The notes: generated from the letters alone by a model not told the origin. DNA of 64,000 nt from a bacterium (GCA_037129835.1 JBAXUE010000002.1:66334-130333); one strand, 5' to 3'. Positions 12,194 to 60,036 are shown, counted from the stretch's first letter. Program-made: numbers and translations.

Positions 12194-13444
12194 TCAAGTA
12201 GGTATCAGGGTGTTTTCTCGAAGCAACTTATCTAGTTCCCTTGCTTCATCGCTGACCTTTAAGGACATTTCATTATATCCTAGCAAGCTTAAGCCATCGA
12301 GTTCACGAATACGAGAGAGCGCGACATATCCAAGTCCATATGTAAATGCTCGGCTGAGGTCTATTTCGGCATAATCAAGAGTCATTCCTTGGCTTTTGTG
12401 TATTGTTATCGCCCATGCAAGCCGTAGCGGAATTTGTTCGATCCAGCCATCGAAGTCGATTTCTTCTATTCCCCAACGGATCGGCATCGCGATTATTTTG
12501 TTGCCCTTAAATGTTTCTACTATTGGATTGTTGGTTTCTAAATCGAAACCGATTATTGTACCCGTGGTGCCATTTACGTATCCTTTGGCAAGATTATTAA
12601 ATACGAACATTACAACGGCGCCGATCTTTAGCTTTAGTTTCTCGGGTGCGAGACAACCTTTTTTCATTTGGCCGACGATAAAGTCATCACCGCTCGACGA
12701 CATCAGATAGACTCTTTCGGCTTCATCTATCACTGCTAATCTCTGGAGATTATAGTCATCGACATTAGAATTGTGGGTAAAAAGCTTGGTGGGTATTATT
12801 CCTTCATCGAAGCCACAGTTTATTCTAGAGCTTAGTAGCTCGCAGGATTCTTCTGTCACTCTAGATTCTCTGATCTCGTTTAGAAGCCTATAAAGGTCGT
12901 TATTGTCGCTCTGTCTGTATTGTTTCTCGAGATAACATATCTGGAGGTCCATCTGTTGCCAGGCAGTGGATTTATTAACAAAATCACCACTAGATTTACC
13001 TTTCGCAACCGGAGGCAATTGGAAAAAATCTCCACAAAGCACTACTTGCAAGCCACCAAATGGCCCTAGATCCGTTCTTACTCTACGGCAAATCTCATCT
13101 ATCATGTCTAGTTGATGGGCGTGTAGCATCGATACTTCGTCTATTATCAGAACTTTTGCTTCTTGGATTCTTTTTACTGTAGATTTGTTACGACTAAAAA
13201 GCTTTTTGATATCTGCGCTAGTTATATTGTCCTTGATCCCTATCCCCGACCAAGAGTGGATGGTCACCCCGTTTAGATGTGTCGCAGCAATGCCAGTAGA
13301 GGCGGTAATGCCAACAGCAATATCGTTTTTATTTAAATACTGAATAAACTGGTTTAGTAGAAATGTTTTTCCAGTTCCTGCTTGGCCAGTTATCAGAGCA
13401 TTTTTGCCGCTTACTAATATTTCAAAAGCTTCTTCTTGGGTCAT
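12194..13444 (-). CDS. Pif1/RecD-like SF1B DNA helicase (compact 416 aa)
   Basis: GQAGTGKTFL (motif I), LIIDEVSML (motif II), and a C-terminal ITIHKSQGMT box typical of RecD/Pif1/TraA helicases. Confidence 0.75.
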   Translation of the reverse strand: MTQEEAFEILVSGKNALITGQAGTGKTFLLNQFIQYLNKNDIAVGITASTGIAATHLNGVTIHSWSGIGIKDNITSADIKKLFSRNKSTVKRIQEAKVLIIDEVSMLHAHQLDMIDEICRRVRTDLGPFGGLQVVLCGDFFQLPPVAKGKSSGDFVNKSTAWQQMDLQICYLEKQYRQSDNNDLYRLLNEIRESRVTEESCELLSSRINCGFDEGIIPTKLFTHNSNVDDYNLQRLAVIDEAERVYLMSSSGDDFIVGQMKKGCLAPEKLKLKIGAVVMFVFNNLAKGYVNGTTGTIIGFDLETNNPIVETFKGNKIIAMPIRWGIEEIDFDGWIEQIPLRLAWAITIHKSQGMTLDYAEIDLSRAFTYGLGYVALSRIRELDGLSLLGYNEMSLKVSDEARELDKLLRENTLIPT

Positions 13445-15718: not shown

Positions 15719-15997
15719 CTAGTTGGTAAAGCCAACGTGCTTGGTATTTTCTTCTGCTTGCTCTATCTTAACTCCAAAACCGCTTTCATACTGTTCTATA
15801 TTGGTTTTGAGTGCCTCGTAGAGCCTTTTGGTGTGTCCTGGTGACATTATTATCCTTGAGAGCAACATTCCTTGGTTCTGGAAGATATTAATGAAATCTA
15901 GGGTAAATTCTTCTCTAGTATGTCCGATCATCGCGACATTGGCATAGTTTCCCTTCAGGGTGGCGTCATCGGCTTTTATTTGTACTTGTTGTTCCAT
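15719..15997 (-). CDS. DUF3467 family small protein
   Basis: 92 aa. The pattern GNYANVAMIGHTREEFTLDFINI…SRIIMSPGHTKRLYEALKTNIEQYE matches my recollection of the DUF3467 consensus. Confidence 0.55.
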   Translation of the reverse strand: MEQQVQIKADDATLKGNYANVAMIGHTREEFTLDFINIFQNQGMLLSRIIMSPGHTKRLYEALKTNIEQYESGFGVKIEQAEENTKHVGFTN

Positions 15998-16017
15998 AGT
16001 GTCTCCTTTTCTCTCTT

Positions 16018-16103
16018 CGTCATTCTGAACCGAGTGAAGAATCTAGGATTGTATCTGGATTCCTGCTTACCGCAGGCAAGCTTCTTTCCGACTCAGGATG
16101 ACG
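16018..16103. repeat. 86-bp GC-rich MITE/REP-like element (GTCATCC family) with imperfect terminal inverted repeats
   Basis: The ends CGTCATTCTGAACCGAGTG and, reverse-complemented, CGTCATCCTGAGTCGGAAA are inverted repeats. An internal CCTGCGGTAAGCAGG hairpin is present. 45 of 48 nt are identical to the copy at 19816-19863 in opposite orientation. Confidence 0.65.
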
Positions 16104-16122
16104 ATTTGGGGGTGTTAAATTA

Positions 16123-18852
16123 TTATTTTGATACTAATTTCTCTGCTACTAGTTGGGTTATTCTCTTTGGAGGTTTATTTCTAGCTTTAAATGTTTCTTG
16201 AACCAAAAGATAGAATAAAGCGATAAATATTGCTATTGCCCAGGCAGAGAAGTTAAGCGGTGCCATGCCAGCGAATTTCTGGAGAAAAGGAACGTAAATT
16301 AATAAATTTACAAACATAAAAGACACGGCCAGTCCTATCCAGACTCTTTGTGAACCAAGTAGTTTCCATACTGGTTTTCTGGCTGACCGTATAGAAAAAG
16401 CGTTGGCATATTGGCACAGGGCCATGGTGGCATAAGTGACAGTAGTGGCCGCAATATATGTTTCGTTATTCGGAAAAGCACTCCCCCAACGCCAACCATT
16501 TAGATATCCATATATGCAAAATCCCGCCACCGAAAAAACACCCAGCATTATACCACTCCTTACGATGTAGTAGATAGTATCTGTACCAAAGAGGATATCC
16601 TTTTTGTCTCTTGGCGGTTTTGACATCACATCATCCTCTTCTATATCGCCTGCAAGTGCGAGAGCCGGAAAAGCCTCTGCGCAGAGGTCGATTAATAGTA
16701 TTTGGATAACAAAAATCGGAGGCAAGCCGATAACTAGCCCAAAAACAACAGCAGTGAACTCCGCCATATTTGCAGTAAAGACATATTTTGTTGCTTTTTT
16801 GATATTGTCATAGACGATTCTGCCCTCTTTTACCGCCCAAACAATAGAAGAAAAACTGTCGTTCAGCGAAACCATTTCTGCAGCTTCTTTGGTAACATCT
16901 GTTCCTGTCAGCCCCATCGCTACGCCAATATCCGAGGTCTTTAGAGCCGGAGCGTCATTGACGCCATCGCCTGTGACCGAGACGATATTTCCATGTGCTT
17001 GTAGTACTTTCACTAGCCGCAGCTTGTGGATTGGGTCTACCCGAGAGAATATTACATCTCCAGTTTCGATAATCTGATATAGTTCATCGTCTTTCAATTG
17101 ATTTAGTTCATTACCGTCGATGACGCGCGGATCTATGTTCAGCTTGATTCTCTTACCTACGGCTGCTGCTGTCAGGCCATAGTCGCCAGTCGCCATTATT
17201 ATCTTTATTCCAGCTTCTTTAGCGATTCTGACAGTTTCTGCTACATCTTCTCTTGGTGGATCGATAATACCAAGAAGTCCTAAGAAAATCAGGTCAGAAT
17301 CGATTGTACTGCCATCCATAGGCTTATAGGCAGAGGCTATTACTCTCAGCGCATCCTTGGAATATTCGTCATTTGTTTTTTCGATATCTTTTCTATCAGC
17401 TGTAGTTAGTTCGACTGCTTTGCCACCCTTAAGTATTTTTGTACATTTTTGTAAGATAACCGCAGGCGCCCCTTTGACGTATACCGTCTTTTCACCTTTG
17501 TAGTCGACTGCCTTGGCCATGAATTTTCGTTCTGAAGTAAAGGGTATTTCCTCTACACTTTTCGCTTCCCTCTGCATCGTATAAGTATCTAGTCCTGCCT
17601 TTTCTGCTGCCACAAGCAGAGCGATCTCGGTTGAGTCACCGATATAATCTGGTTTGTGATGATTTTTTGTATCGACTTCGGCATTATTGGAAATAGTTAC
17701 AGCTTGAAACAATATATTAGTTTCATCCAGACAGCTTCTGTTGCACAGTTTTCCTTCACGGGTGATTTCCCCGTCGAGACTATATCCCACGCCCTTTATA
17801 TGATAATTTTCGTTATTAAAGTAAATCTCTTTTACGGTCATCTGGTTCTTGGTTAGGGTGCCTGTTTTGTCAGTAATGATGTAGTTTGCCTCACCTAGGG
17901 TTTCCACTGCCGAAAGTCTGCGGATAGCAGCCTTTCTTCTGGTCATTTTTTGGATGCCGATCGCAAGTGCGATAGACACCGTGGCTGGTAAACCCTCAGG
18001 GACAAGAGAAGATGCTACTCCGATGGCAAAACGAAAAGATTCTAGTGCGTCAAAGTGACCCTTTGCTACTGTATCGACTACGAGCAGGATGAGAACGACC
18101 CAGAAGGTTGCTTTGGCTACAGTCTTGGCAATCCGGTCTATCTCTATTTGTAGCGGTGATTTTGATACCTTTTGGGTCGAGGTTATTTTGGCAATTTTAC
18201 CAAAGCTAGTTTCCATTCCGGTGGATACCACCACACCGATACCGTTACCAGAGATTACGTCAGTTCCCATAAATACAGAGCCTGTTACATCGACTACGTT
18301 TCTCTCGTTCTCCTCTGTTACCATCGCTACTTTGGATTGTGTTTCAGATTCTCCTGTAAGTGCTGCATCATTCGTTTCTAACTCATTTGCAGATATTAGC
18401 CGGATGTCTGCTGGTATCTTCATTCCCTCGGAAAGAACAATAATGTCACCGGGTACGATATCCATGGCGTCGATAGTCTGGCGGTCATTGTCTCTGATAA
18501 CGGTTGCAGACTGAGCGACAAATTTCTTAAGAGCGTCTATCGCTTTATCAGCTTTGTATTCTTGGAAAAAACCAATAGTGCTATTGGCAATCACAACTAA
18601 AAAGATGACAATTGCATCTTTAGGTGCTCCTAGAATATATGCGAGACCGGCGGCCGTCAGAAGAACTATCGCTAGAAGGTCAGTGAATTGGACAAGAAAT
18701 TTGACTATATATGGAGTTCGTTTTTGCTGTACTAGCTTATTGTGGCCGTATTTATTGAGACGCGTTGTAACTTCTGCGCTCGAAAGACCTTTGTCAGTCG
18801 TCTTTAGAGTATCTAATACTTTAGTAATATCGTCATAGAGCAATGAATTCAT
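16123..18852 (-). CDS. P-type cation-transporting ATPase (P2-type, Ca2+/Mg2+-like)
   Basis: Cation_ATPase_N-like start, phosphorylation site DKTGTLT, hinge GDGVNDAPAL, and about 10 TM helices. Confidence 0.9.
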   Translation of the reverse strand: MNSLLYDDITKVLDTLKTTDKGLSSAEVTTRLNKYGHNKLVQQKRTPYIVKFLVQFTDLLAIVLLTAAGLAYILGAPKDAIVIFLVVIANSTIGFFQEYKADKAIDALKKFVAQSATVIRDNDRQTIDAMDIVPGDIIVLSEGMKIPADIRLISANELETNDAALTGESETQSKVAMVTEENERNVVDVTGSVFMGTDVISGNGIGVVVSTGMETSFGKIAKITSTQKVSKSPLQIEIDRIAKTVAKATFWVVLILLVVDTVAKGHFDALESFRFAIGVASSLVPEGLPATVSIALAIGIQKMTRRKAAIRRLSAVETLGEANYIITDKTGTLTKNQMTVKEIYFNNENYHIKGVGYSLDGEITREGKLCNRSCLDETNILFQAVTISNNAEVDTKNHHKPDYIGDSTEIALLVAAEKAGLDTYTMQREAKSVEEIPFTSERKFMAKAVDYKGEKTVYVKGAPAVILQKCTKILKGGKAVELTTADRKDIEKTNDEYSKDALRVIASAYKPMDGSTIDSDLIFLGLLGIIDPPREDVAETVRIAKEAGIKIIMATGDYGLTAAAVGKRIKLNIDPRVIDGNELNQLKDDELYQIIETGDVIFSRVDPIHKLRLVKVLQAHGNIVSVTGDGVNDAPALKTSDIGVAMGLTGTDVTKEAAEMVSLNDSFSSIVWAVKEGRIVYDNIKKATKYVFTANMAEFTAVVFGLVIGLPPIFVIQILLIDLCAEAFPALALAGDIEEDDVMSKPPRDKKDILFGTDTIYYIVRSGIMLGVFSVAGFCIYGYLNGWRWGSAFPNNETYIAATTVTYATMALCQYANAFSIRSARKPVWKLLGSQRVWIGLAVSFMFVNLLIYVPFLQKFAGMAPLNFSAWAIAIFIALFYLLVQETFKARNKPPKRITQLVAEKLVSK

Positions 18853-18967
18853 AAATATATTTTATGCTATATATAGATAATAATGAAGAGAAATAAATAC
18901 AAATGGAGAAGGTCCGCGCCGGGAAGACGCTTTATATAGCTACCTTCTCGTTGCGGACCTCTTGGAC

Positions 18968-19342
18968 CTAGTCTTCGACCTCATCGATCCCGAGCATCGC
19001 TCTCGCGACTTCGATATCGGGTGCCAGGTCGAAGTTGTTGGTGTACTTCACCAACTTCTTAGAGACCTTCTCGTCCTCGGGGACTACGATCACAAACGGA
19101 ATGTGATCATTCATCAGGTACCGACCAAAGCTGTAGATACGGCCGATAGCCGCGCTACAAAGCTTGGTGACCATTGCGAGGTCGAGAATGACTCCGGCCT
19201 TGCGGGCCTTTATCAGAGTCTTGTCGAACTCGAGTCGGAGAACCGGCTCGACACTGTCGTCGAGATTTCCTCCGAGCTTCAGGATCACGGCCTTGTGGCC
19301 GTTACCTGCTTCGAACTTTTCGATACTGTGTACACAATGCAT
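18968..19342 (-). CDS. STAS domain protein (anti-sigma-factor antagonist SpoIIAA-like) in GC-rich module
   Basis: AVILKLGGNLD…GVILDLAMVTKLCSAAIGRI matches the STAS pattern v.l.G.LD…viDls.v.fiDSsGlg.l. Strong SD GAGGGGGA 4 nt upstream. Coding GC is visibly higher than in neighbouring genes. Confidence 0.55.
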   Translation of the reverse strand: MHCVHSIEKFEAGNGHKAVILKLGGNLDDSVEPVLRLEFDKTLIKARKAGVILDLAMVTKLCSAAIGRIYSFGRYLMNDHIPFVIVVPEDEKVSKKLVKYTNNFDLAPDIEVARAMLGIDEVED

Positions 19343-19351
19343 ATATCCCCC

Positions 19352-19666
19352 TCAGTCGGTTTCTAGTATTGCCGGGTTTTCGGAAAAGAACCATGAACCC
19401 CACAGCTCTCTCTTGACACCTACTTGCAGCGAATGTACCCACATTCCCCCTATGGGGATTTCGAAAGAGGGAAAGAAATCGAGTTCGATCTCTCCCTGCC
19501 AAACCACTTTCTCACGGTCAACGATATCGTAGATGACAAGTGAGTCACCGGTCTGGAGCAAGTGCAGGCCATCATAGCCGCCTTGCCTTCCTTCTTCTTC
19601 GAAGGCCCAGAAACCTCCTTCGGTTCCGGTCTCGAAGTAGAAATGTAACGTACCCACAAGTTTCAT
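19352..19666 (-). CDS. Hypothetical 105-aa protein (GC-rich), first gene of STAS two-gene module
   Basis: Start re-assigned to MKLVG, which has SD GGAGGTG 6 nt upstream. The longer ORF prefix overlaps repeat elements. No recognisable motif. Stop lies 9 nt before the STAS gene. Confidence 0.45.
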   Translation of the reverse strand: MKLVGTLHFYFETGTEGGFWAFEEEGRQGGYDGLHLLQTGDSLVIYDIVDREKVVWQGEIELDFFPSFEIPIGGMWVHSLQVGVKRELWGSWFFSENPAILETD

Positions 19667-19711
19667 GTGGCTCACCTCCCAAACGATGTTATCGTGATTG
19701 AGACAAAGAGG

Positions 19712-19740
19712 ATTATACAACATAATGAGTGTTCTGTAAA
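19712..19740 (-). promoter_or_regulatory. Near-consensus sigma-70-type promoter TTTACA-N17-TATAAT
   Basis: On the - strand: TTTACAgaacactcattatgttgTATAAT, positioned about 45 nt upstream of the 105-aa gene start. Confidence 0.5.
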
Positions 19741-19758
19741 GATAAACATATACTCCCC

Positions 19759-19863
19759 AGTCATCCATGGCCCGCTTTCGTCATCCTTGCGAACGCGAGG
19801 GTCTCTTTTGGCAACGTCATCCTGAGTCGAAACGAAGCTTGCCTGCGGTAAGCAGGGATCCAT
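19759..19863. repeat. Cluster of three GTCATCC-family repeat units (second terminus of the inverted pair)
   Basis: AGTCATCCATGG, CGTCATCCTTGCGAACGCGAGGGTCTC and CGTCATCCTGAGTCGAAACGAAGCTTGCCTGCGGTAAGCAGGGATCC. The last unit is 45/48 identical to the inverted copy at 16.06 kb. Confidence 0.65.
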
Positions 19864-20230
19864 GTCCACTCTCCTTATCGTTCGAATTCTAATGAGAACT
19901 ACAGATACAGGTTATATGTAGTTTTCATAGGATCTACGTAATCCAACCATCAGTTCGAAAAGAAAGAGAGTAAAGTAACGAAGTTATAATAAATAACTTC
20001 CGGTATCGGCTTGTTGTTATTTATTATATTTGAGCTACTGCAACGAATGATACTTTAAAGAATCTGTTAGGTTGGGCTTTTTGCACCACTTTTATTAAAA
20101 AAGTGGCATATATTATAATATAACGTTTAAAAGATATTCGCTAAAGTCGTAATTGCTCGACCTCGAAGATAGTCGAGTACACGGTACCAAGGCGATTTTT
20201 CATTGGGATTAACGCTTAAATATACCGCCC

Positions 20231-20335
20231 CTTTGTCATCCCTGGTCGCACTTGTCCTCCAGTAGCTTGTTAGCGAAGTAGGAACCCCAGTCTGCCCGAG
20301 CCGTACGCTCGTGTCGGCCAGGGGGATCTCTCTAG
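20231..20335. repeat. Extended GTCATCC-family repeat (TGTCATCCCTGGTCGCAC…GGCCAGGGGGATCTC)
   Basis: Shares the GTCATCCCTGG…CCAGGG(G)GATCTC termini with the copies at 21.28 and 34.77 kb. GC-rich relative to the flanks. Confidence 0.45.
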
Positions 20336-21254: not shown

Positions 21255-21280
21255 AATTACTTTTCCTCTCCTGTGTCATC

Positions 21281-21311
21281 CCTGGCCACAAACCAGGGAT
21301 CTCCTGCTTAT
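21281..21311. repeat. GTCATCC-family hairpin repeat TGTCATCCCTGGCCACAAACCAGGGATCTCC
   Basis: Near-identical to the reverse complement of 34762-34792 (TGTCATCCCTGGTCACAAACCCAGGGATCTC). Confidence 0.55.
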
Positions 21312-21369
21312 TGTTCGAAGATCGGCAGTAGCCGAAGCGAGAACTAAAAAATAGCCTCTTGGTACTAGT

Positions 21370-22625: not shown

Positions 22626-24428
22626 TTACTTCTTATCGAGTATTTTTACATTTTTTTTAGCATAGTCAGCAGAGAGCATTTTGATCCCCGTATCTTTAAA
22701 AGAAACTCGAATTTCATCATCAGATATTCCCTCTACTTCGCCTATTCCGAAATCAGGATGACTGATAAGATCCCCAACTTCCAAGAAAGTTTCCGACTCT
22801 TCATCGATGTGTTCTACCACAGGTTCTTCGTCTGACCTATCTTCTACTCCTTTAGTATTTCCACTAAATATCGCTCGAAGTATTTTTTCTTCTGACGACT
22901 GAATAGCTTTTTCCTCTTCTACAGAAACAACTGTTTTTTCTACTTCTGTAACAGGTTTCTGGAAGTCATCTCCACCAGGAAGCTCTAGTGCCTTTATCTC
23001 AGGTAGGGCTATGTGACCACCAATATCACCATACATTCCTACAGTATTTGTGAGTACTCTGCTAAGCTGCTTTTCTCTCTCACACCATATCTTTTCGAAA
23101 GCGTTTCGCTCTTTGCGTATACCACTTTCCATAGCTCCAAAAGCCTCTACTATGGCCTCTACCCTTTGTTTAAACTCATTGCCCGTAAGGTATGTATATA
23201 GGTAGTCCATCTTGTCGTTCTTGTTGACTGCCAAGGCCTTCTCTCTATAGACATCCACCAGGCCTTTTCTCAGCACTGTAGCGAGTGCAATAGCATATTT
23301 TAACTCACATACCCAAATCTTTTCTATTTGTACGAATCCATGAGCATCTCCAGGCATAGCTGCTGTTACTATCACTCCGATATCTGCCTTTATAGCCCTC
23401 ATATCTTCTTTTAACTTATCTACCCAACCTGCACTCCAAGACTTGGTTTGCTTGGATTCCCAAGCTATTTTGCCACACAGAGCACCGGCTTTGTTTTGTA
23501 CTAGCTGTACCACATCAGCACCGTTTACACCCTTTGGTACTGGCGCGATAGCGTCAAAAGGAAAAGCGTCGGTTAGCACTTGTTCTAGCTCGAGCTCCTG
23601 AACTTCGCCTTGGGTTTGCATGGAGCCTTGCTCCAGCTTCCTAGCTAGATCGTCCTTTGCCCTGCTGACATTCGATAGCTTCATCTCTAGCTCAGCAATC
23701 TTTTTGTGCTGTTGCTCTTCGGCCTTTCTACCCGCTTCTTCTTGAATCTTCTGACGCTCCTCGTCTAGCTGTCTCATCTTCTCTAGCTCAAAGCTCTGCT
23801 TGTCTTCCTCTAGGGTAATCTTTTGCTTTCGAAGTTCCAGCTCTTTTTCCTGAGCTTTACGGAGCTTCTCGTCCTTTTCATTCATTTGCTCTTGGAAACT
23901 ACGTTTCTCTAGCTCCAGCTCTTTTTGAGTTTCGTCGGCTAGCTCTTTTTTGAGCTCTAGGCGATAGGCCTCAGTCTTCTCGGCGTATTTCTTCTCGACT
24001 TCGAGCTCTATCTTGATTTTTTCCTCTTCTAGCCTAGTCTTTTCTTTTCTGAGCTCTATTTCACTCTCTTGAGCTTTTTCGAGCTTTTCATTTTTTTCCA
24101 AAATTAACTGCTCAAAATTATGTTTTTCTAGCTCTAGCTCTTTTTTTGCCTCTATTGATAATTCTTTTTTGAGTTCTAGCCGATAATTTTCTATCTTTTC
24201 GGCATACTTTATCTCAGCCTCTAGTTCTATCTTGGTTTTCTCTTTTTCTATCTCAGATTCTCTGGTGGCCAGAAGCCTATTAGTCTGCTCTAGCTCATCT
24301 TTTAGCTTTTGCTGTTCACTACTTAGCTCTTTGCGAACCTTTAGTTCCATCTGCTCTTTTAGGATGTCGTCGATGTCTATATCCCAACCGCATTTTGGGC
24401 ACTTAATGTTTTGTTCTGAATCTGTCAT
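22626..24428 (-). CDS. DUF2130-like protein: N-terminal Zn-ribbon, long duplicated coiled coil, conserved C-terminal alpha/beta domain
   Basis: A CPKC…C start, then about 250 aa of E/K/L heptad-rich sequence containing two ~73-aa near-identical blocks. The C-terminal region (AIAPVPKGVNGADVVQ…IWVCELKYAIALA) resembles DUF2130. Confidence 0.5.
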   Translation of the reverse strand: MTDSEQNIKCPKCGWDIDIDDILKEQMELKVRKELSSEQQKLKDELEQTNRLLATRESEIEKEKTKIELEAEIKYAEKIENYRLELKKELSIEAKKELELEKHNFEQLILEKNEKLEKAQESEIELRKEKTRLEEEKIKIELEVEKKYAEKTEAYRLELKKELADETQKELELEKRSFQEQMNEKDEKLRKAQEKELELRKQKITLEEDKQSFELEKMRQLDEERQKIQEEAGRKAEEQQHKKIAELEMKLSNVSRAKDDLARKLEQGSMQTQGEVQELELEQVLTDAFPFDAIAPVPKGVNGADVVQLVQNKAGALCGKIAWESKQTKSWSAGWVDKLKEDMRAIKADIGVIVTAAMPGDAHGFVQIEKIWVCELKYAIALATVLRKGLVDVYREKALAVNKNDKMDYLYTYLTGNEFKQRVEAIVEAFGAMESGIRKERNAFEKIWCEREKQLSRVLTNTVGMYGDIGGHIALPEIKALELPGGDDFQKPVTEVEKTVVSVEEEKAIQSSEEKILRAIFSGNTKGVEDRSDEEPVVEHIDEESETFLEVGDLISHPDFGIGEVEGISDDEIRVSFKDTGIKMLSADYAKKNVKILDKK

Positions 24429-24514
24429 CTTATCTCCTTATTCTTTTTAGCATTTATTAATAGCTCCTGCATTATACACCCCAATAATGCCAAAAGTGCC
24501 CATTTACGAAAAAA

Positions 24515-24757
24515 TTAATCAAAAAGTATAAAAGGATTCATCTCCGCCGGTGTTTTCCAGCGTATTTTATACTTCTTCCTAAGTATTTCTTTTTTCTTAT
24601 GCCAAAAGGTATGGCAATATCCCAAATCACCTTCTTTGATTGGCGAATCTTTCAACGCATCCGTGACTTCATTATTGATTTTTGCGAAAATATCACGATA
24701 CCTCGGGTCTCGCTCTATTGGATCGTTAGCTATGTCGTCATCGTACATATTAATCAT
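24515..24757 (-). CDS. Hypothetical 80-aa protein
   Basis: ORF only. Basic C-terminus. Confidence 0.3.
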   Translation of the reverse strand: MINMYDDDIANDPIERDPRYRDIFAKINNEVTDALKDSPIKEGDLGYCHTFWHKKKEILRKKYKIRWKTPAEMNPFILFD

Positions 24758-24768
24758 CTTTGTTCTTC

Positions 24769-25110
24769 TTATTCCGGAGCTTGAATTGGCTTCGCTTCTC
24801 GTCTTTTCTTTATGTAGCTAACTAGGTTAATTATATCTACAACGAATGACCCAAGCAAAATCACTACGAAAAAGAATAGACCAAGTGCATAAGAGATGGC
24901 ATCACCCCAGGCCTGGTTTGGTAATGTGCGTATATAGGTTCCGAATAGAAAAAATCCGACGGCTACTACGACGCTAGTTATCTTTAGACCTATTGATAGA
25001 TCTCCGAGTTTTTTCCCGGTCTTGATATAGATAATGATCGAAGGTGCGACCATAGCCGCGATAGCAAGCAAGAGTATGAATAGCCCAGTAATTAGACCCA
25101 TAAGCACCAC
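24769..25110 (-). CDS. Hypothetical small membrane protein (3 TM)
   Basis: Three hydrophobic helices and a basic C-terminus. Confidence 0.4.
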   Translation of the reverse strand: MVLMGLITGLFILLLAIAAMVAPSIIIYIKTGKKLGDLSIGLKITSVVVAVGFFLFGTYIRTLPNQAWGDAISYALGLFFFVVILLGSFVVDIINLVSYIKKRREAKPIQAPE

Positions 25111-25146
25111 CCTCCAGACGCGATACGTAACGATTTTGTTATGATA

Positions 25147-26121
25147 TTACTTTTGTACATGTTCCTCTCCTTTTGCATGAATTATATTTTCCATATTATC
25201 ATACAGATAAACAAAATATTTTTCTATTTCATTCATTTTATTTGGTAACATATTTTTTGTAAGAGCTGCCGATTCTGCAAAAAACTCTTCGAAATATTCT
25301 GCATATTCAAGAATAAAGTCGTCAGTGAACTCTCCCTTAATTATACATTCATCATAGAGTGGTTTGATCGCCTTTACTCTGGTCTTTAGATATGGGGTAA
25401 AGGGATTATCTATTAGATATCCCATCCCTGGTGGGTTGTAATACATATTGCCTTCGTCATCTTTGATAAAGAAGAACTGTCCGAATTCGGTATTTGCTAG
25501 TATTCCTCGTTCTAGTTGAGCGCCAGTCCCGTTTTCTGTAGCGTAAAGATTTTTAAAATAAAAATGTCCGATTTCATGTGCAAGTAGATATTCGAGTAGC
25601 GCCTCTTCTTTGTTATCTGCTTCTTTTACTACATCTGGCATCTCGTATGGATAGTCATAGGTATCAAATAGCTTTATATCGCCAAAGTGCTCGCTTTCTC
25701 TGTCGGAAATGGCATGTGCCCGTACCCTCAACCACTCATCACCCTCAGGTAGCTCGTTGTTTGCTTTGGCTTTTTCGTATTCTTCCCTGTTATAAAGCTT
25801 CTTTTCATTCTCTATTCCTGGGGTGTAGACATACATTATTACATTATCATAGATTATTTTTGATATACCGACTTTTTTAAAATCCTCTAATTCGTAATTT
25901 CTCGCGATGAACTCCAAGGCGCTCTCTCCTAGATTCTTGTTTTCTTCAAATCCTTCGAAACCGAGATATGCTCGAAAATCATCTAGCTTCTCCTTTGATA
26001 TTTCATCATGAGTTTCCGTATAGACACTACTAGTAGGCGCACTTTCTTTAAGTTTTGTTCTTTCCCACAGCTTACTAGCCTCACGCTCAGCAGGTCCTAT
26101 TGGTAATGGTATATGTTCCAC
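25147..26121 (-). CDS. Hypothetical cytoplasmic protein with HExxH (AHEIGHF) zinc-binding motif
   Basis: HEIGH motif in the middle of an acidic 324-aa protein. No other recognisable domain. Confidence 0.4.
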   Translation of the reverse strand: MEHIPLPIGPAEREASKLWERTKLKESAPTSSVYTETHDEISKEKLDDFRAYLGFEGFEENKNLGESALEFIARNYELEDFKKVGISKIIYDNVIMYVYTPGIENEKKLYNREEYEKAKANNELPEGDEWLRVRAHAISDRESEHFGDIKLFDTYDYPYEMPDVVKEADNKEEALLEYLLAHEIGHFYFKNLYATENGTGAQLERGILANTEFGQFFFIKDDEGNMYYNPPGMGYLIDNPFTPYLKTRVKAIKPLYDECIIKGEFTDDFILEYAEYFEEFFAESAALTKNMLPNKMNEIEKYFVYLYDNMENIIHAKGEEHVQK

Positions 26122-26140
26122 TATTATCCTTTCTTTGTAT

Positions 26141-26812
26141 TTATTTCTCTTTCGTCACCAAGAACGGAAAAACTCTGTTCATTTCATCGTTCCGAAGGAT
26201 AAATGCCGCCTCGAGGAAAGTATACAGTAAATCTTTTGTATTTTTCAGTACATCAGCACTACAAAAGACGACGAAATCAGCTTCGTTTATCTCTGAGGGC
26301 GATTGGATGTGGATCTTGTTTCTCAAGTTCTTGAGCTGTTTCAAATCATTTCGATAAAAGGCAAATGACAGCCCGAATGTCTGCTCCTGCGCAGACTTAT
26401 AGAGTAAGCTCTTAAAATCATGGATATCGTCATAGCTGGCACCTGTTTCTTTGTGCTGGATATACAGAATAGACTCTATTATTAGTGCCGATATCAGAAC
26501 AAATGTCTTCACATTCTGCCCATAGAGAGAGCTGGTGAGATATAGCTGCTTGGTGCATTCGTCTAGATAGTGAAGATATTGGAGATTATAGGCGATGTTA
26601 CTAAAAGCAGCATACTTTGGGTCATCATCAGAAAATTCGTAATCTATCAGCCGTGGGAATATAGTACTGCGATAGAAATCTATTGAGTTTGGCAGAAACT
26701 TGTTCGAACCCTCCTCTTTGGAACAAACCCGACACAAGATATTAGGCTTGTCTGGATTGTACAAGTCCTGCTTTACAAAGCCTGAATTGCTGTGTTGTTC
26801 TGTTTTAGTCAT
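26141..26812 (-). CDS. Hypothetical protein at the edge of defense island (N-terminal CxxC)
   Basis: 223-aa ORF with an N-terminal CRVC pair. Helical C-terminus. Confidence 0.4.
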   Translation of the reverse strand: MTKTEQHSNSGFVKQDLYNPDKPNILCRVCSKEEGSNKFLPNSIDFYRSTIFPRLIDYEFSDDDPKYAAFSNIAYNLQYLHYLDECTKQLYLTSSLYGQNVKTFVLISALIIESILYIQHKETGASYDDIHDFKSLLYKSAQEQTFGLSFAFYRNDLKQLKNLRNKIHIQSPSEINEADFVVFCSADVLKNTKDLLYTFLEAAFILRNDEMNRVFPFLVTKEK

Positions 26813-26873
26813 TTTTCCCTTTTATAAAAGAATACATTGTTCTATCTTACTTTGTAAAAAATTATTAACTAAA

Positions 26874-28229
26874 CTAGTCTCTGCCACCCCTTTGTCTATT
26901 ACAATATCGGTGGACTAATCTGGCGTTTGATAGCTTGGTTTCTCCACCTCGCCAGTAAAACTCAATATGATCAACCTCAGAATCGTCTAAAACACGTATT
27001 TTTTGACCACATATTTTACAGGTTGAATCAGTGTCAAAAAGTTGCTTTTTCTCGTCGTGTGAATAGTTTCTTGTCTGTGACTTGGAATAATCTACGATTT
27101 TCCTCAAAGATTCTAGCCATTTCTCAAATCTGTATTGCACATTTTCTGGCTTATCTGTTGATGACTTCAAGGAATCTTCAAATTTCTTGACAGCTGTCAT
27201 TAAGTGTAAAAGTTCTTCGCGAATAGAATCAAGGTGAGGGATAATTTCGTTTTTTTGATACATCGTGAAACCCCACATTACGATGTCAAATAAGCCTTTG
27301 TTTATTTTTGTATTTTCCCACTTTCCGTTTGAGTCAGATTCTTCGCCTACAACAAACCTACGAAAAGCATTGTCACCAAATACTGAGCGAGTTAGGTCAA
27401 CAGATTTTTTAAAAACCTCACGAAGTTCTTTTGCTTTTTCTTCATTTAGATTTTGGTTATTATGCATTTCTTGATTTAGAAACTGTCTCATGGGTGCTTT
27501 GTATTTTAAGTATGAGTTATTATAAAAAGCGAAAAATCGTAATAAAAGCTCTCTATCAATCATTCTTATGGACATAGCTGGTGATTTTAATAATGTTTGA
27601 TATTCTTTATTTTCGGCAAGCTCGATTAGTAAGTCGTTATATTTTCCACGGTAAATACAGTTTCTGAGTTCCTGGTCGTTCAGCTTCACTGCGCCAGTAT
27701 TTAGTCTTTCGAAAACCTCAAATCTAACATTGATATCAGAATCCTTTTTGATTCTGATAAATGGTATAAGATAAGAATCAACTTTTCGCTGTGTTATTTT
27801 GTCTAGTTCCTTAAATGATTTCCTGTTTAGTCCTGTCAAAACCTTTAATCCCGAAAGGGCAAATTTTTCGTGCTTGTCTTGAAAGTACCCGTCCTTAAAA
27901 GAAAAGATAGAAATTAGTCTTTGTTGCCCGTCTATTACTGATTGGGTACCGTCATCTTCTTCGGCAGTGTATATTACTGGTATCGGGACTCCCAAGAGAA
28001 TAGATTCTATCAGTCTACTAGCTTTGCTTTTATCCCAGACATATCCTCTTTGAAAGTATGGTCTTACATCAAGTTCCCCTGCCTTGTAATCAGAATATAA
28101 GTCTTTTATGGCTCTACTGGGGTTGTCAAAGGTAATTCTTCTTTCATCCTCAGGTATATCAAAAACCAGTGGTTCGTTGTCATTATTGTCTTCTTCAAGA
28201 ATAACGTCATTATTATCTATTACCGTCAT
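26874..28229 (-). CDS. GmrSD-like type IV restriction protein: DUF262 (ParB-like NTPase/nuclease) N-domain + HNH/DUF1524 C-domain
   Basis: VIDGQQRLISIF is the DUF262 hallmark. The C-terminus CKICGQ…DHIEFYWRGGETKLSNARLVHRYCN is an HNH motif. Confidence 0.8.
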   Translation of the reverse strand: MTVIDNNDVILEEDNNDNEPLVFDIPEDERRITFDNPSRAIKDLYSDYKAGELDVRPYFQRGYVWDKSKASRLIESILLGVPIPVIYTAEEDDGTQSVIDGQQRLISIFSFKDGYFQDKHEKFALSGLKVLTGLNRKSFKELDKITQRKVDSYLIPFIRIKKDSDINVRFEVFERLNTGAVKLNDQELRNCIYRGKYNDLLIELAENKEYQTLLKSPAMSIRMIDRELLLRFFAFYNNSYLKYKAPMRQFLNQEMHNNQNLNEEKAKELREVFKKSVDLTRSVFGDNAFRRFVVGEESDSNGKWENTKINKGLFDIVMWGFTMYQKNEIIPHLDSIREELLHLMTAVKKFEDSLKSSTDKPENVQYRFEKWLESLRKIVDYSKSQTRNYSHDEKKQLFDTDSTCKICGQKIRVLDDSEVDHIEFYWRGGETKLSNARLVHRYCNRQRGGRD

Positions 28230-28285
28230 AATTCTCCTTTACTTTGATCTATCGTTTTTGCTTATCAAGTTTTTTCATTGGTTCG

Positions 28286-29449
28286 CTATTTATTTCCCTT
28301 GGCACGGTTATGTGTTTTACAAAGCATCTCACAGTTATTGATATCTGTGGCGCCACCTTTACTCCATGCTGTAACATGGTCAGCATCCATTTCGGTAAGA
28401 CTCCAGATTTTTGTCTTGTTGGCGTCGTGACCGATTACGCAATTCGGACAATTTGAAATGCCTTTAGATTTAGCGGTCGTAGTTTGTGACGAATATACCG
28501 CTTTTTTAGTTGCCTCATCAAAAACACGAACTTCAAGTAGTTTCTTTTCATTAGACCCACCTAGAATATATTCAAATATTCCCTTTCGATTTTTTATGTA
28601 TGGGTCTCCATAAAGCTTTTGTACGGCCAATGACACTTTTGCAGGATCATAGGCTTTTGTATGAAATTTTTTATAAAGTCGACCCCAATCCAGGCCTCGC
28701 ATTTCACTTTCAACATCTATAAATACACCAGAAACCCATTCTATTACGCTTTTAAAATATGCTTTTAACTCAGTGATATTGTTATCAAAGCGGTGACGAC
28801 TCATATATTCGCCGTTATTACCACAACTAATCCAGTCTAAGGCTCTCTCTAGAAATTCCTGTCTGTTGGCACTGCCAGTTACATAAGCACTCCATTTTTG
28901 AATGTTGGCATTTTGACTATTACTGAATTCCTCTTTACCAAGTGTGACAAATGGACCAGAATAAACCGCATTTAATAGTTCTTGATTATTTAGCGGTACA
29001 CCGGCAATGTTTATGGTTTTGAACCACTCTTTTATTTCACTTTCTTCGCCCTCGCATTCGTATATAAGAAGCTCAGCGTTCATGATTTTAGCCTGCTTAT
29101 CTGAAGCAATTCCACTGAAGTATTGTTCCATGCCGTTTTCGTCTTTTATGGCAAATTTGTTATAAACGAATCGTCCGATACTAGTGATACGTTGTTGTCC
29201 GTCCAATACTTCTAAGTTGTCAGTGCTCACTTTGTTAAAATATATTAAGCCCAGCGGATAGTCTTTGAGTAATGAGTCAATGACCGCGACGTCTTTTTTA
29301 CCATCAGCATAGATGTAGTTACGTTGATACTCTGGCTGAATAGTGAGCTTGCCAGAGAGTCCGAACAAACCCTTGCCTTCATGCTGGTTATACACAAATC
29401 CTTCACATATATTTCTTACGGTTATGTTAGTTACTAAAGTAGTTTTCAT
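28286..29449 (-). CDS. Second DUF262 + HNH (GmrSD-like) protein, paralog of upstream gene
   Basis: [14 protein letters not shown] (DUF262). The C-terminus CPNC…[25 protein letters not shown] is an HNH motif. Confidence 0.75.
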
Positions 29450-30648
29450 GCTATACCTTTCTTGTGTTTGATTAAAATCCTAGCGAATGGAACCACAACA
29501 GTTTCATCTTTTATCATATATAAATCACCGTTCACCGTTCCTCTTTTTTGCACTTCTTTCCGATACTTTTTATGCTCAGGTTTATACGGTTTGACTCCGA
29601 TGGATAAGCCCAGGTTTGCTATTCCCAAACCAATAATATCAAATTGTTCAGGAGAATATTTGTCAAGGAAACTAATTGGCACGCCCATAATACCCTTAAA
29701 GTCTCCAGGAATATGTTTAACGAAAGGAACTTCTATTGCATTAAAATTATCATAATTATCAAAAGATCTTTTAGTGCCAAATTTTATAACGTCTGACAAT
29801 TTCATTAATGGTAAGAATTCGTGAAGCCTTCCGTGGTCAAGATTAGTAAACCAGCGAACACCTTGGACTCTCGTGATGTAAACTTTCTTACCATTTTCAT
29901 CCGTCCGTATTTCGCGTACTTGCTCTAGATTGGCAATATCTTCTGGTATTTCATAAAACATTGCTCCACCATTCACTTTATGATTATTGCCAAGCCAAAT
30001 CTTGTTATCCTTAATTAATGGAAAGACTTCTTTATAAGTAATAGCGTTCATACTACCAATTATTAAGAACTTTTTTTTGTACTCAATAAGTTGTTTTAAG
30101 TACTCGCGGAACAAACTGAAAGGCGGGTTAGTTACCACTATATCAGCCTGCTTTAGTAGCTCAACACACTCGTTGCTCCGAAAATCTCCGGCTGCGTATT
30201 TATCATCGCCAAGTAAAAGCGAATAAGCATTATTGTCATGTTCTAAAAGCCATTTCACATCATTAAGGTTGGTTATGCCATCTTTATTAAGGTCTGAAAC
30301 CTCATTGATCTCAATTTTAAATGCTTTTTTATTTTTTCGATTAGAAAGTGTCTTATTTTTACCCATTTCTTCGAAACCCGGTATTTGTATCTGTGTTTGT
30401 ACAATCGGCGAACCAACGTAGCTTGTCGTTATCAACTTTTTTAAGCCAAATTCCTTAAATTTATTTGCAAAATACTTGAAGAAATTACTTTCAAATGGGT
30501 CATCGCAGTTGCAATAGACTATCTTGCCGCGAAAAACATCAGGATCGTAATCAATGTAGGCTTGGATTTCCTTCTGAATATCTTGATATTGAGTATAAAA
30601 CTCGTCGTTTTTAGTCTTTTTTGCGTTATGTAAATTTTTTTGTGCCAT
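29446..30648 (-). CDS. N6-adenine DNA methyltransferase of the M.EcoRI family
   Basis: The N-terminus …[19 protein letters not shown]…[18 protein letters not shown] and the catalytic [15 protein letters not shown] closely resemble M.EcoRI as I remember it. Its stop overlaps the downstream DUF262 gene start (ATGA). Confidence 0.8.
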
Positions 30649-30660
30649 TTAAAACCTTAT

Positions 30661-31128
30661 TTATTTTTCAAAGCAAATTGGATTAAATATCTTTTCAGGA
30701 AAATCGTTATCTCCAATTTTATATTTTAATTCACCGTTTGTTCCATGTACTGAATATTTTTCTCGATTGCGCTTTGACACAGAAATTGATTTGACTCCGG
30801 ACTGGCTAGGCCTTAACAACCTCTCAATTTCGTCATAGTTTAAGCAACAAACTCCTGCATCGTAACATACAAGTAGGACAAAAACCTTCTCAAACTTTGA
30901 TTTTAGCTCTAATAGTTTTTCGAGATGATTCTCCGAAAATGTAAAGCTCCAGGGGATTAACCGACTCTCAGTATATTTAACATATAAGCCACTTTCTCTG
31001 AGCTGAGAGAGAATCTTAAAACTAGAATTGTCATCATCAACATAATCACTAACACCAAGACATCTTTGGTCTTGAATTATTTTTAGTAAAGCTGCCCCGT
31101 AATATAGTTGATATTTAAAATTTGCCAT
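30661..31128 (-). CDS. Hypothetical 155-aa protein between Z1 NTPase and methyltransferase (candidate effector/specificity partner)
   Basis: 7-nt gap to the Z1 gene and 13-nt gap to the MTase gene. No confident motif; there is a possible acidic cluster after a beta-strand (VFVLLVCYDAG…NYDEIE). Confidence 0.4.
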   Translation of the reverse strand: MANFKYQLYYGAALLKIIQDQRCLGVSDYVDDDNSSFKILSQLRESGLYVKYTESRLIPWSFTFSENHLEKLLELKSKFEKVFVLLVCYDAGVCCLNYDEIERLLRPSQSGVKSISVSKRNREKYSVHGTNGELKYKIGDNDFPEKIFNPICFEK

Positions 31129-31134
31129 AATAAT

Positions 31135-33018
31135 TTATCTTAGCCTATAGTTTGCCTTTTTAAGGCTATCTTTAAAATAGTAAACAAATCTACACTTTCC
31201 TGCCTCGTTTCTGATCAACATAATATGGTGCTTTGCATTGGGAAAAGCGACCATTTCTGTACCACCAAAAACACCCCTACTTCTGTATAAAAAGTCCTTA
31301 TATTCAAGGTCATCTGTTTTTGAAACCATTCTTATTGGATGGAATGCTATGTCCTTGTCTGCAGTCATTCCACTGTATACAATAAAATTAATTAGAAATA
31401 GAGGCACCACACTGCCACCGTAAAGCCGGTTAACTTCTTTTAGCTTTTGGATATTACTTATTCCTTTTTTACTAATAATATCTGAAAAAATGCTAGCGTA
31501 ATCAAACATAGGAAAATACATTTCGTTTTTGTCAGTTAATATATTCTTCTTGTCGATACTAGAACTAGAGGCGGGCTTAACTCTTTGGCTTGAAATCCAA
31601 ACTGGTGCTGCACCCTCGTCATTGCTTTTTAATGATTTTAAAGATAAATCATGAAAAATAAAACAACGGTGCCAGTCCTCGAAAAGTGATTTTGGTATTG
31701 AGAGTTCAAAGAAGTCTTTGTATTTGCCTCTACTGCCGAACATTCTAGCTCTTTGGATATAAGTGTCTTGTTGAATCCTGTGTTTAGCAGTTCGTGTGAA
31801 GAACATGCCCAAAAGATTCTTTATTGTTAAGCCCCGGGAAATTATATTTCCACCAATTATTATTGTAAAAAGAGCTGGTGCATTAGTTGGGTCTTCTTCC
31901 ATTTTATTATTTGAGTTAATAACATAAACTTTTTTCTTATTAACATAATCTTTGACAAATGTTGTCACTTCTTTTGCTGCTATATCACCAAATCTTTCTT
32001 CTGCAATACTGTGTATTATTCCAAGGTAACGTTCCCATTTGGGACCCTTATTTGTATCTGCCAGTGCGTCAAAAAAATTATCTACAATTTTTTTATCTCT
32101 TTCGTGTTCACTTTTAATGCCACTTGTATGAATAATAAAAGCAAAATTAACATCATCATTATTCGCATTTTGTTCTACGAGCTTTTCCTTGTACTCGGGA
32201 TTTATATTTAAATAAGAAGCATTAACTAAAAAGCTTGCTAAAGCTTCATGTAAATATGATGGGTCATCTCCATTCTCAGGAAGTATATTCACCATGTATT
32301 CAACTTCGGTTATTTTTTCTAGATTAATTGGAAAAAAAAAGTCTTTGCCTACATAATTTTTATGAGAATCAAAAAATACCCATTCTTCAGATAAATTATC
32401 AAAAGTATTGTTAAGATCTAGTCGTGCTGGAGTGGCTGTTACCCCAACGTAGGTGCCGTCTCTTCGAAGTAATTTGCCGATTTCGTTATTAATTGCCGTT
32501 ACTTCATCTTTATTTATTTTAGAATTTGGGCTGGCATAATCAGCCTCGTCATCAATTATTATTAAACCACTTCTATTTCTTAGTTTTTCGTTTAAATTTG
32601 TTAAATTGCGGATATTTTTCTTTGAAAAAATTATAACCTGCCCATCATTTAAGTCTTCTTCAAGAAAAGCCCTGCTAGACATGGTATCTGGTGTAGGGTC
32701 GATACCTGAACTAGTAAATCTTTCGAGATTTTGAAGTTCAAGCTTTTTATTGTCATTCATGAGAATAACAATAGTGTTGTTGCCAATATCAAGTAATTTT
32801 GCTGTAAGCGATATCATCATTTCGGTTTTGCCACTTTGTGGCTCACCGTAAATCACAAATGATGTTATACCCTTTTGAATTTTTTCTACTGAATCTGAAA
32901 CAGCGTTTTCAATTTGAAAAGTATCAATACCCTTTTTATCTCTAAGGAAATTAATTCTTTTCTCATATCGGCTGTTTCTTCTATTTTCTGAGTCTCTATA
33001 ATCATCTGGATTAAACAT
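31135..33018 (-). CDS. Z1-domain P-loop NTPase (restriction-modification-associated ATPase family)
   Basis: Walker A GEPQSGKTEMM and a Walker B/DEAD-like LIIIDDEADYAS, the pattern I recall for Z1-domain proteins (…QSGKT…DEADxAS). Confidence 0.55.
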   Translation of the reverse strand: MFNPDDYRDSENRRNSRYEKRINFLRDKKGIDTFQIENAVSDSVEKIQKGITSFVIYGEPQSGKTEMMISLTAKLLDIGNNTIVILMNDNKKLELQNLERFTSSGIDPTPDTMSSRAFLEEDLNDGQVIIFSKKNIRNLTNLNEKLRNRSGLIIIDDEADYASPNSKINKDEVTAINNEIGKLLRRDGTYVGVTATPARLDLNNTFDNLSEEWVFFDSHKNYVGKDFFFPINLEKITEVEYMVNILPENGDDPSYLHEALASFLVNASYLNINPEYKEKLVEQNANNDDVNFAFIIHTSGIKSEHERDKKIVDNFFDALADTNKGPKWERYLGIIHSIAEERFGDIAAKEVTTFVKDYVNKKKVYVINSNNKMEEDPTNAPALFTIIIGGNIISRGLTIKNLLGMFFTRTAKHRIQQDTYIQRARMFGSRGKYKDFFELSIPKSLFEDWHRCFIFHDLSLKSLKSNDEGAAPVWISSQRVKPASSSSIDKKNILTDKNEMYFPMFDYASIFSDIISKKGISNIQKLKEVNRLYGGSVVPLFLINFIVYSGMTADKDIAFHPIRMVSKTDDLEYKDFLYRSRGVFGGTEMVAFPNAKHHIMLIRNEAGKCRFVYYFKDSLKKANYRLR

Positions 33019-34688: not shown

Positions 34689-34792
34689 TGGGGCAAGACC
34701 CAGGAGGTCATCCTTACGAAAGTAAGGATGACCTCCGGAGGGTAAGAAAGAGATCCCTGGGTTTGTGACCAGGGATGACAACGGGTGTTCCC
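34689..34792. repeat. Cluster of three GC-rich hairpin repeats (GTCATCC family), BIME-like
   Basis: CCTGGGgcaagaCCCAGG; GTCATCCTTACgaaagTAAGGATGAC (a perfect 10-bp stem); GAGATCCCTGGGTTTGTGACCAGGGATGACA. Confidence 0.6.
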
Positions 34793-34976
34793 ACGAAAAA
34801 TAACTCAGTCCGCAGACCGACACTTTGAGAAATATGTATGCTGTAGCTCGGCTACTAAAAGTATTTTTAAAAGAGAGTTGTTATTTTTCTTGAACTTAAC
34901 TCCATTTTCTTTCAAGAGAAAATGGATAATAAATAATTAATAAATTTTTAGTTAGAATAAATTGGTATATTGCGAA

Positions 34977-36881: not shown

Positions 36882-37370
36882 CGATTGCCAGAAATTGCGT
36901 TAAACGAATTTCTTAATGAGTTGAAGGAGTCGATTTTCCTGAACCTGGCGCCACCTGCTTTCAAGAGGAGGTGGCAATTAATAAAATTAATCTGCCGTAA
37001 TCTATAACTATTTAACTACTTATTTTGATACCTTTGTCTTTCGTCACAAAGGTATCGCCAAAAGACTCTTTTCATGCGGACTCACTGCGGTTCACCGCAA
37101 TGTCTGATAATATTTTGTTTTCAGAAACATCGTTGTCATTGAATCAACTTTCATCAAGTTAGTTATTTACCAATCAAAAAATCTTTCCATTTGGAAAGAT
37201 AAGTTCGACCTTTGAGTTTTCACTCCTTATCGTTCCGCATTTGCGGCTAGCATTGGCACCCATTTGGTGTGGGTTGCCGGCAGGTACCGCCGTCGCGACG
37301 CTATGTCGGTCAGGCATCGGGCTAGTTCCCTATCTGCACTCTTGATATATTTGATTGTAGATATATTATA

Positions 37371-59938: not shown

Positions 59939-60036
59939 GGTTTATGTACTTTCCCCCGTCATGCTGAATTTATTTCAGTATCCCGAGATCCTGAATCGAG
60001 TTCAGGAAGACGCAAAGAGGTGTGCGACGAGTGTAG

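Follow-up and report, generated by a model that had tools for sequence, protein, structure and literature searches.

The DNA studied here, a bacterial stretch of 64,000 nucleotides (GCA_037129835.1 JBAXUE010000002.1:66334-130333; hereafter the window, numbered from its first letter), is part of a 372-kb metagenome contig (ENA ERZ27300174, k141_20016). At 16018-19863 it holds an operon for a cation-transporting P-type ATPase, enclosed by two short inverted repeats, element 1 (16018-16103) and element 2 (19815-19862). A sequence-only reading had taken the pair for elements resembling miniature inverted-repeat transposable elements (MITEs) that bracket a composite or mobilisable segment, or mark a site of inversion or recombination between repeats. 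We propose instead that the two repeats are probably copies of a lineage-specific subfamily, named unit A, of CGTC-tagged repetitive extragenic palindromic sequences (REPs), which are common in the spacers of the host and do not carry the ATPase segment.

Organization of the locus

The three genes of the operon are located on the minus strand. The ATPase gene (16123-18852) encodes 909 aa with five Pfam ATPase domains and is native in composition (G+C content at third codon positions, GC3, of 0.387 vs a window mean of 0.354 ± 0.05). It is preceded by a gene for a 124-aa protein (18968-19342; GC3 0.70) and, further upstream, by a GC-rich gene for a 104-aa protein (19352-19666; GC3 0.55). The sequence-only reading had recognized both the native composition of the ATPase gene and the GC-rich two-gene STAS module, and both hold, the latter by way of a family profile. 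The 124-aa protein itself has no direct Pfam match. An exhaustive search yielded a small family in which 9 of 11 aligned members match Pfam STAS (PF01740), and the profile of this family matches structures of SpoIIAA and anti-sigma antagonists (E = 1e-14 to 1e-10); judged by these profiles, the protein is a divergent STAS protein. A single-sequence AlphaFold model was unusable (predicted local distance difference test score, pLDDT, of 36), and the assignment rests on the profile searches. The STAS stop codon is followed by a GC-rich hairpin (within 18853-18967; GGTCCGC...GCGGACC and then TCTCCATT), and a matching hairpin (L043:465-520) is found past a 49%-identical STAS gene of a different genome. 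The 104-aa protein matches no family, with no Pfam match even at E = 10. Its gene is hypervariable between strains (61-75% nucleotide and roughly 50-70% amino-acid identity), and each of its three alleles is richer in GC than the genome (GC3 0.52-0.62). Of the promoter-like sites in the region, the best (19712-19740, minus strand; TTTACA-17-TATAAT, 11/12) lies in the interval from the 104-aa gene to element 2 and is conserved among the three strains compared below.

The inverted pair is readily confirmed. A repeat finder returned arms of 57 nt at 16047-16103 and 19815-19871 that are 88% complementary and 3711 nt apart, the longest perfect stretch common to both being 23 nt. Their 48-nt core at 19815-19862 equals the minus strand of 16056-16103 at 45 of 48 positions, a match that was absent from 100 dinucleotide shuffles. 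The second copy is, as had been claimed, a reverse complement with three mismatches; its coordinates had been placed one base off, at 19816-19863.

Element 1, 86 nt long, consists of two CGTC-tagged units joined as an inverted dimer whose tags face outward. It begins with CGTCATTCTGA and finishes with TCAGGATGACG, which form an 11-nt terminal inverted repeat with one mismatch, so that the imperfect terminal repeats described earlier are real. It is situated 19 nt past the ATPase stop codon and 20 nt ahead of the start codon of a DUF3467 gene, and both of its strands fold as a single long hairpin (-30 to -31 kcal/mol, z = -3.6). One of its units is near-canonical (16018-16045, plus strand; CGTC-ATTCTGAA-CCGAG-TGAAGAAT-CTA, with 6 of 8 stem pairs). 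The other, on the minus strand at 16056-16103, is the first copy of unit A (CGTC-ATCCTG, a 28-nt loop with the hairpin GCCTGCGGTAAGCAGG, CAGGAAT-CCA). Element 2, a unit A monomer on the plus strand, is the second copy, with the same CGTC tag and CCA tail, and the general form of the unit can be written as CGTC-ATCCTG-(28-nt loop)-CAGGRAT-CCA, the loop holding the nested GC hairpin. The flanks of element 1, ...TCTCTCTT on one side and ATTTGGGG... on the other, contain no direct repeat indicative of a target-site duplication. The window contains no tRNA gene as an integration target.

Relation to CGTC-tagged REPs

Element 1 and element 2 belong to a larger set. The spacers of the window share a recurring building block, in which a CGTC or TGTC tag leads into a stem that opens with AT, closes over a short loop and ends in a 3-nt tail. 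A strict search that required GTCAT, seven or more Watson-Crick pairs out of 8 and a loop of 3-9 nt returned five canonical units vs 0.53 expected, the maximum in 200 shuffles being four. When long-loop and degenerate units are included, at least 10 units occupy 7 intergenic spacers within the 64 kb. CGTC tags are found at 16018(+), 16103(-), 19779(+), 19815(+), 59957(+) and 60012(-), and TGTC tags at 20234, 21274 and 34780; all four exact CGTCATYC sites of the window are intergenic. The motif CGTCATYCTGAR, with at most one mismatch, occurs six times vs 0.84 expected.

The CGTC-tagged REP superfamily comprises the families CGTC-1 to CGTC-4 and includes Neisseria dRS3 (equal to CGTC-1) and Rickettsia RPE-4/6 (Di Nocera, De Gregorio, Rocco 2013, PMC3733652). 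Its members carry a CGTC, sometimes TGTC or CCTC, tag and have stems of 8-9 bp, which nearly always open with an A and its complementary T; their loops fall into a few types and measure 4-5 nt, and their tails approximate CCA. Inverted dimers are frequent, most units are found downstream of coding regions, and no transposase is associated with them (PMC3733652). The units of the window correspond closely to this description. Their tags are unpaired CGTC or one of the allowed variants. Stems of 8 bp that open with an A-T and then a T-A pair are seen in the canonical units at 19779, 21274, 34706, 34780 and 59957 and in units of the contigs or loci L003, L013 and L031 (7-8 of 8 pairs), and the loops of the canonical units in the window measure 4-8 nt. 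Both copies of unit A end in CCA (16056-16058, minus strand; 19860-19862), and most other units end in CTC. Within the window the units are multi-copy and extragenic, lie between co-directional genes and often just past stop codons, and in two cases, element 1 and 59957-60012, they are paired in opposite orientation and fold as one hairpin. The tags are outermost in both dimers. Pfam domains of transposases or recombinases are absent from the scanned open reading frames (ORFs) of the window and from precomputed Pfam lists, in keeping with the lack of a flanking transposase in this class. Near-identical units occur in unrelated hosts, here as in the described families. The differences are a host outside the five phyla of PMC3733652, the long nested loop and bulged stem of unit A, and tails that are mostly CTC.

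To our knowledge, no dedicated transposase exists for CGTC REPs, and we know of no organism studied in which the mobilising enzyme has been named. REPINs, in comparison, are GTAG REP doublets mobilised by RAYT, an IS200/IS605-type Y1 transposase. They resemble the present units in forming inverted doublets that fold as one long hairpin, in lacking target-site duplications and in being non-autonomous; they differ in that the tag here is CGTC, not GTAG, and a RAYT or other Y1 transposase was not found in the 64-kb window. A further parallel is found in the dRS3 elements and NIMEs of Neisseria, in which CGTC-type units are likewise interleaved with other short modules in mosaics that differ between strains. 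This likeness is drawn from window 19770-20330 compared with L003 and from the shared modules at 34790-34950 and 21308-21346; the sequence relation is limited to the tag and stem logic, and we see no sign here that phages or insertion sequences target the units.

The compound setting of element 2 illustrates the modular arrangement. It is embedded in a block of about 170 nt (19741-19909) made up of a companion module, unit A, a neighbouring CGTC unit and about 40 nt. The neighbouring unit (19779-19805, plus strand; CGTC-ATCCTTGC-GAAC-GCGAGGGT-CTC) has the orientation of element 2 and lies on its tag side. The companion module (19875-19901, plus strand; TTATCGTTCGAA...GAGAACTA) lies on its tail side and also flanks CGTC-type units at 21308-21346 and in locus L031. 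Elsewhere, a long-loop TGTC unit (20234-20330, plus strand) directly follows the DUF2103 stop codon, and a canonical unit succeeded by the companion module is found at 21274-21346 (plus strand; TGTC-ATCCCTGG-CCACAAA-CCAGGGAT-CTC). Two further units span 34706-34780, one a palindrome (GGTC-ATCCTTAC-GAAA-GTAAGGAT-GACC) and the other a minus-strand TGTC-ATCCCTGG unit. The second inverted dimer, composed of canonical CGTC units with tags outermost, occupies 59957-60012 between the stop codon of a GTPase gene and the start codon of pth, and its single hairpin has a folding energy of -22.3 kcal/mol on the plus strand (z = -4.05). Rfam gave no match at gathering thresholds in the whole window and only chance-level matches in 15900-20100, and the repeats are therefore not a described RNA family. 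Two ORFs extend across the repeats (15920-16201, plus strand; 19672-19869, minus strand); as candidate small genes they were rejected because their start is not conserved in L003.

Comparison of strains

The locus was compared between three strains from the same lakes, represented by contigs L001 (the window), L003 and L004. Element 1 is identical in sequence across contigs L001-L004. Relative to L004, a near-identical block (3324 of 3326 positions) spans window 16017-19342, from the STAS start codon to no more than 2 nt from the outer end of element 1 (element 1 ends at L001 position 12835 and the first difference is at 12837). Relative to L003, the corresponding block (3451 of 3452) spans window 15861-19312 and continues 157 nt beyond element 1, into DUF3467. 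The ends of the block coincide with a repeat in one of four cases, and both element 2 and the 104-aa gene are outside it. The right flank is 92-97% identical between strains (DUF2103, 92%). The alignments indicate that the STAS-ATPase-element 1 block has recently spread among co-existing strains through homologous recombination without a change of locus, and that its ends do not correspond to the repeat pair. A near-identical block amid flanks that differ by 3-8% is the signature of a recent recombinational sweep.

L004 keeps the promoter, the 104-aa gene, the STAS gene, the ATPase gene and element 1 and is without element 2. The block of about 170 nt that includes element 2 (about 19741-19909) is present in L001 and L003 and has 23 unrelated nt in its place in L004, a replacement rather than a clean insertion. 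Several samples yielded assembled contigs that span either repeat or contain the flanking genes; all of them have the same gene order and orientation, and none shows absence, relocation or inversion of the segment. In the comparison of synteny in related genomes that had been suggested along with the initial claim, the strain contigs show one order and orientation, with element 2 missing from L004, and deeper relatives share no neighbourhood with the window.

Units turn over module by module between these close strains. Past the DUF2103 stop codon, where L001 has the long-loop TGTC unit (window 20234-20330), L003 has a canonical CGTC-ATCCTGAA-CTTGA-TTCAGGAT-CTC unit (L003:1025-1055). A clean insertion of a 19-nt hairpin, CCCGCCTGCGGCAGGCAGG, is present at L003:1170-1188 and also at L008:523-537, with an empty counterpart in L004 and in the paralogous module near window 34893; it sits between CTTGAAC and TTAACTCC and has no target duplication.

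Several observations accompany these comparisons. The CCTGC-N5-GCAGG hairpin of CCCGCCTGCGGCAGGCAGG closely resembles the nested hairpin of the unit A loop. An intergenic module of about 170 nt at window 34790-34950 recurs upstream of the ATPase operon in L003, L008 and L004, not in the window strain, and an internal 84-nt piece of it is missing from L004; like NIMEs, the intergenic regions consist of shared modules in mosaic arrangement. Two independent Logan contigs, L002 and L011, begin inside the nested hairpin of element 2 (at GCAGGCAAGC...), and assemblies appear to break at the element 2 palindrome or at a strain-variable point.

Host and distribution of the repeats

Named homologues of the DUF2779 and ATPase proteins of the window are mostly from Patescibacteria, Parcubacteria, Saccharibacteria and CPR2, by which the host is probably a bacterium of the Patescibacteria (candidate phyla radiation, CPR). 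DUF2779 homologues at 65-71% identity (L039-L041) have no neighbourhood in common with the window. ATPase orthologues at 71-74% identity (L044, L045 and one for which no DNA was available) occur in other gene contexts, and the two readable ones are without repeats; the nearest STAS homologue, at 49% identity, does not adjoin an ATPase gene. Comparison at a depth of 65-74% identity cannot show an empty site. No units of this kind were found in the readable relatives L039-L045 (about 80 kb), and the family therefore seems, on the present sequences, to be expanded in this lineage.

A scan of JGI metagenomes with the 20-nt core of unit A returned 21 contigs, 4 of which are from this lineage. The others contain the bare hairpin in unrelated, mostly GC-rich contigs; in L017 and L021 it is nested in other TGTC units. 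Six GTDB matches to the core together with stem and tail were rejected as apparently due to chance; all are coding and in unrelated genomes, and three read as lipoprotein signal peptides. The canonical form is far more widespread. YGTC-ATCCTGAA-N5-TTCAGGAT-C has 82 copies in 54 stretches of IMG/VR viral contigs (L046-L099) of 28-71% GC, and the CTTGA, TTTAT and CTCGA loops of this lineage are among the major loop types there. This spread fits the cross-phylum uniformity described for CGTC REPs. One 30-kb contig, IMGVR_UViG_3300028845_000195, contains up to nine canonical units. Phage and plasmid collections contain no similarity to element 1, and no paper linking Patescibacteria with REPs was found in a limited full-text search of the literature.

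Discussion

We conclude that a known kind of repeat is present here as a structural variant, with an expanded loop, a nested hairpin and compound modules, and in a host group for which we found no earlier description. In this view, element 1 is a dimer wedged between the ATPase stop codon and the ribosome-binding site of the next gene, and element 2 a monomer within a compound repeat block just upstream of the operon promoter. The units are presumably non-autonomous and may have spread, or been reshuffled, one unit or module at a time, either by a trans-acting enzyme that is not encoded nearby or by recombination and conversion between units. In transcripts of the minus-strand genes, element 1 would give a stable stem-loop in the 3´ untranslated region. 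By analogy to other REPs, such a hairpin could protect the end of the ATPase mRNA or dampen read-through into DUF3467. Since the family occupies at least 7 spacers in 64 kb, copies on both sides of an operon are to be expected. Copying or conversion on a local scale, from one spacer to a nearby one, would best account for the finding that the two nearest copies of a rare subfamily surround the same operon.

Several points weigh against this interpretation. The stem of unit A begins with AT but is only 6-7 bp long and has a 1-nt bulge, and its 28-nt loop with the nested hairpin departs from the 4-5 nt of the class; because of this loop, unit A is filed as a derivative or variant and not as a canonical CGTC REP. 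Element 1 has no U-tract and is therefore not a canonical terminator. Exact unit A cores are present at only three sites in this lineage (this locus and L031, from the same lakes), and GTDB species representatives contain the core in no case beyond the apparent chance coding matches. The counts cover 64 kb of a contig that measures 372 kb or more, such that any genome-wide copy number is extrapolated. The block shared with L004 stops at most 2 nt away from the outer boundary of element 1. Finally, among known copies, the two that flank the operon are the most closely related to each other, which is not what a purely random scatter predicts, and this flanking of the operon by the nearest unit A copies is the least explained part of our interpretation.

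One alternative is that element 1 is a recombination hotspot, that is, a preferred junction for homologous or illegitimate exchange that has shaped the swapped block without being the end of a transposon. The near-coincidence of the L004 block with the outer end of element 1 is what such a role would produce, and REPs are targets of insertion and recombination in other bacteria (PMC3733652). The comparison with L003 speaks against it, in that the block there runs 157 nt past element 1 into DUF3467 and its left end is at no repeat, and only two comparisons bear on the question. We consider this explanation unlikely.

Less probable still is a classical MITE, derived by deletion from an insertion sequence whose DDE transposase would recognize the 11-nt terminal inverted repeats and mobilise it in trans. 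Element 1 has the size (86 nt), the terminal repeats, the intergenic position and the long hairpin of such an element. However, it lacks a flanking direct repeat, and its "inverted repeat" is the CGTC tag plus stem common to many otherwise unrelated units, including monomers. An insertion sequence sharing its ends (CGTCATCCTGA) is not found in the window, which is also devoid of a transposase, and nothing similar is found in the phage and plasmid collections. The description as MITE-like is roughly accurate for small, non-autonomous, palindromic, multi-copy intergenic elements. The CGTC-REP class fits better, in that no target-site duplication was found and no related insertion sequence came to light in the window or in the phage and plasmid collections.

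The composite or mobilisable cassette, in which the inverted copies serve as transposon-like ends carrying the 104-aa gene, the STAS gene and the ATPase gene, is very improbable. It has in its favour that the two closest known copies of unit A are inverted around the operon, that two of the enclosed genes have a foreign-looking composition and that the neighbours of the ATPase gene differ in relatives at 71-74% identity. The arrangement is indeed like that of MITEs flanking cargo, with two similar small elements that have terminal inverted repeats and are inverted around genes. Unlike such cargo, the three genes occur in L004 with element 1 and without element 2, the recently exchanged block leaves out element 2 and the 104-aa gene and ends elsewhere than at the repeats, and the segment is at the same locus in every contig. 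Element 2 has only one of the two termini of the 86-nt element, the 49%-identical STAS homologue is unlinked to an ATPase gene, and the window has neither target-site duplications nor a cognate transposase. Copies and cargo do not move as a unit, and the composite segment is not sustained. Recombination between the 57-nt arms (inverted, 88%, 3.7 kb apart) that would flip the operon relative to its promoter or neighbours is the least probable of all, as claimed inversion site and as switch alike, because every assembled contig that crosses either arm has a single orientation (a rare minority orientation being beyond the reach of assemblies), no gene for a site-specific recombinase is nearby, the longest perfect stretch of 23 nt is short for RecA-dependent exchange, and the promoter-like site is inside the segment, adjoining the first gene, so that inversion would not uncouple the operon from it.

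For the window, the unit A reading means that the ATPase operon is neither a repeat-bounded mobile cassette nor an invertible switch, which removes a tempting but incorrect reading of the locus. CGTC-tagged REPs, with Neisseria dRS3 and Rickettsia RPE among them, appear to reach the candidate phyla radiation. The strains also offer a clear case of gene-specific recombination for an uncultured lineage, as the sharply bounded STAS-ATPase block differs at 1-2 positions in about 3.3 kb amid 3-8% divergence and beside the hypervariable 104-aa gene. One tentative idea, which we rate as rather unlikely, is that a CGTC-REP system is active now in this small CPR genome, perhaps without a RAYT-type transposase. 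Such activity could underlie the unit-by-unit turnover between strains of 92-97% identity and would include a GC hairpin of about 19 nt (CCTGC-N5-GCAGG core) inserting precisely, without target duplication, into REP loops (unit A) and other intergenic modules (L003:1170-1188). The repeats might also guide where blocks of strain-to-strain recombination end. A streamlined genome with strain-level turnover of units is a convenient place to seek the mobiliser of CGTC REPs, and if the system is active, the small gene complement would make the mobilising activity findable.

Additional observations

Other features of the window are less directly connected with the repeats. A defence-type gene cluster adjoins the locus (22626-33018), with a DUF2130 gene, genes for two GmrSD_N+HNH proteins (26874-29449), an EcoRI-type adenine methylase (29446-30648) and a Z1/ResIII helicase (31135-33018). 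A PIF1-like helicase is encoded at 12194-13444. Upstream of metK (35578-36651), a leader on the minus strand at 37224-37351 resembles a SAM-I riboswitch; it scores 30.8 bits vs a gathering threshold of 44.4 (E = 8e-5), apparently because of a 51-nt insertion. The metK gene of the relative L043 is preceded by a similar SAM-I-like leader.

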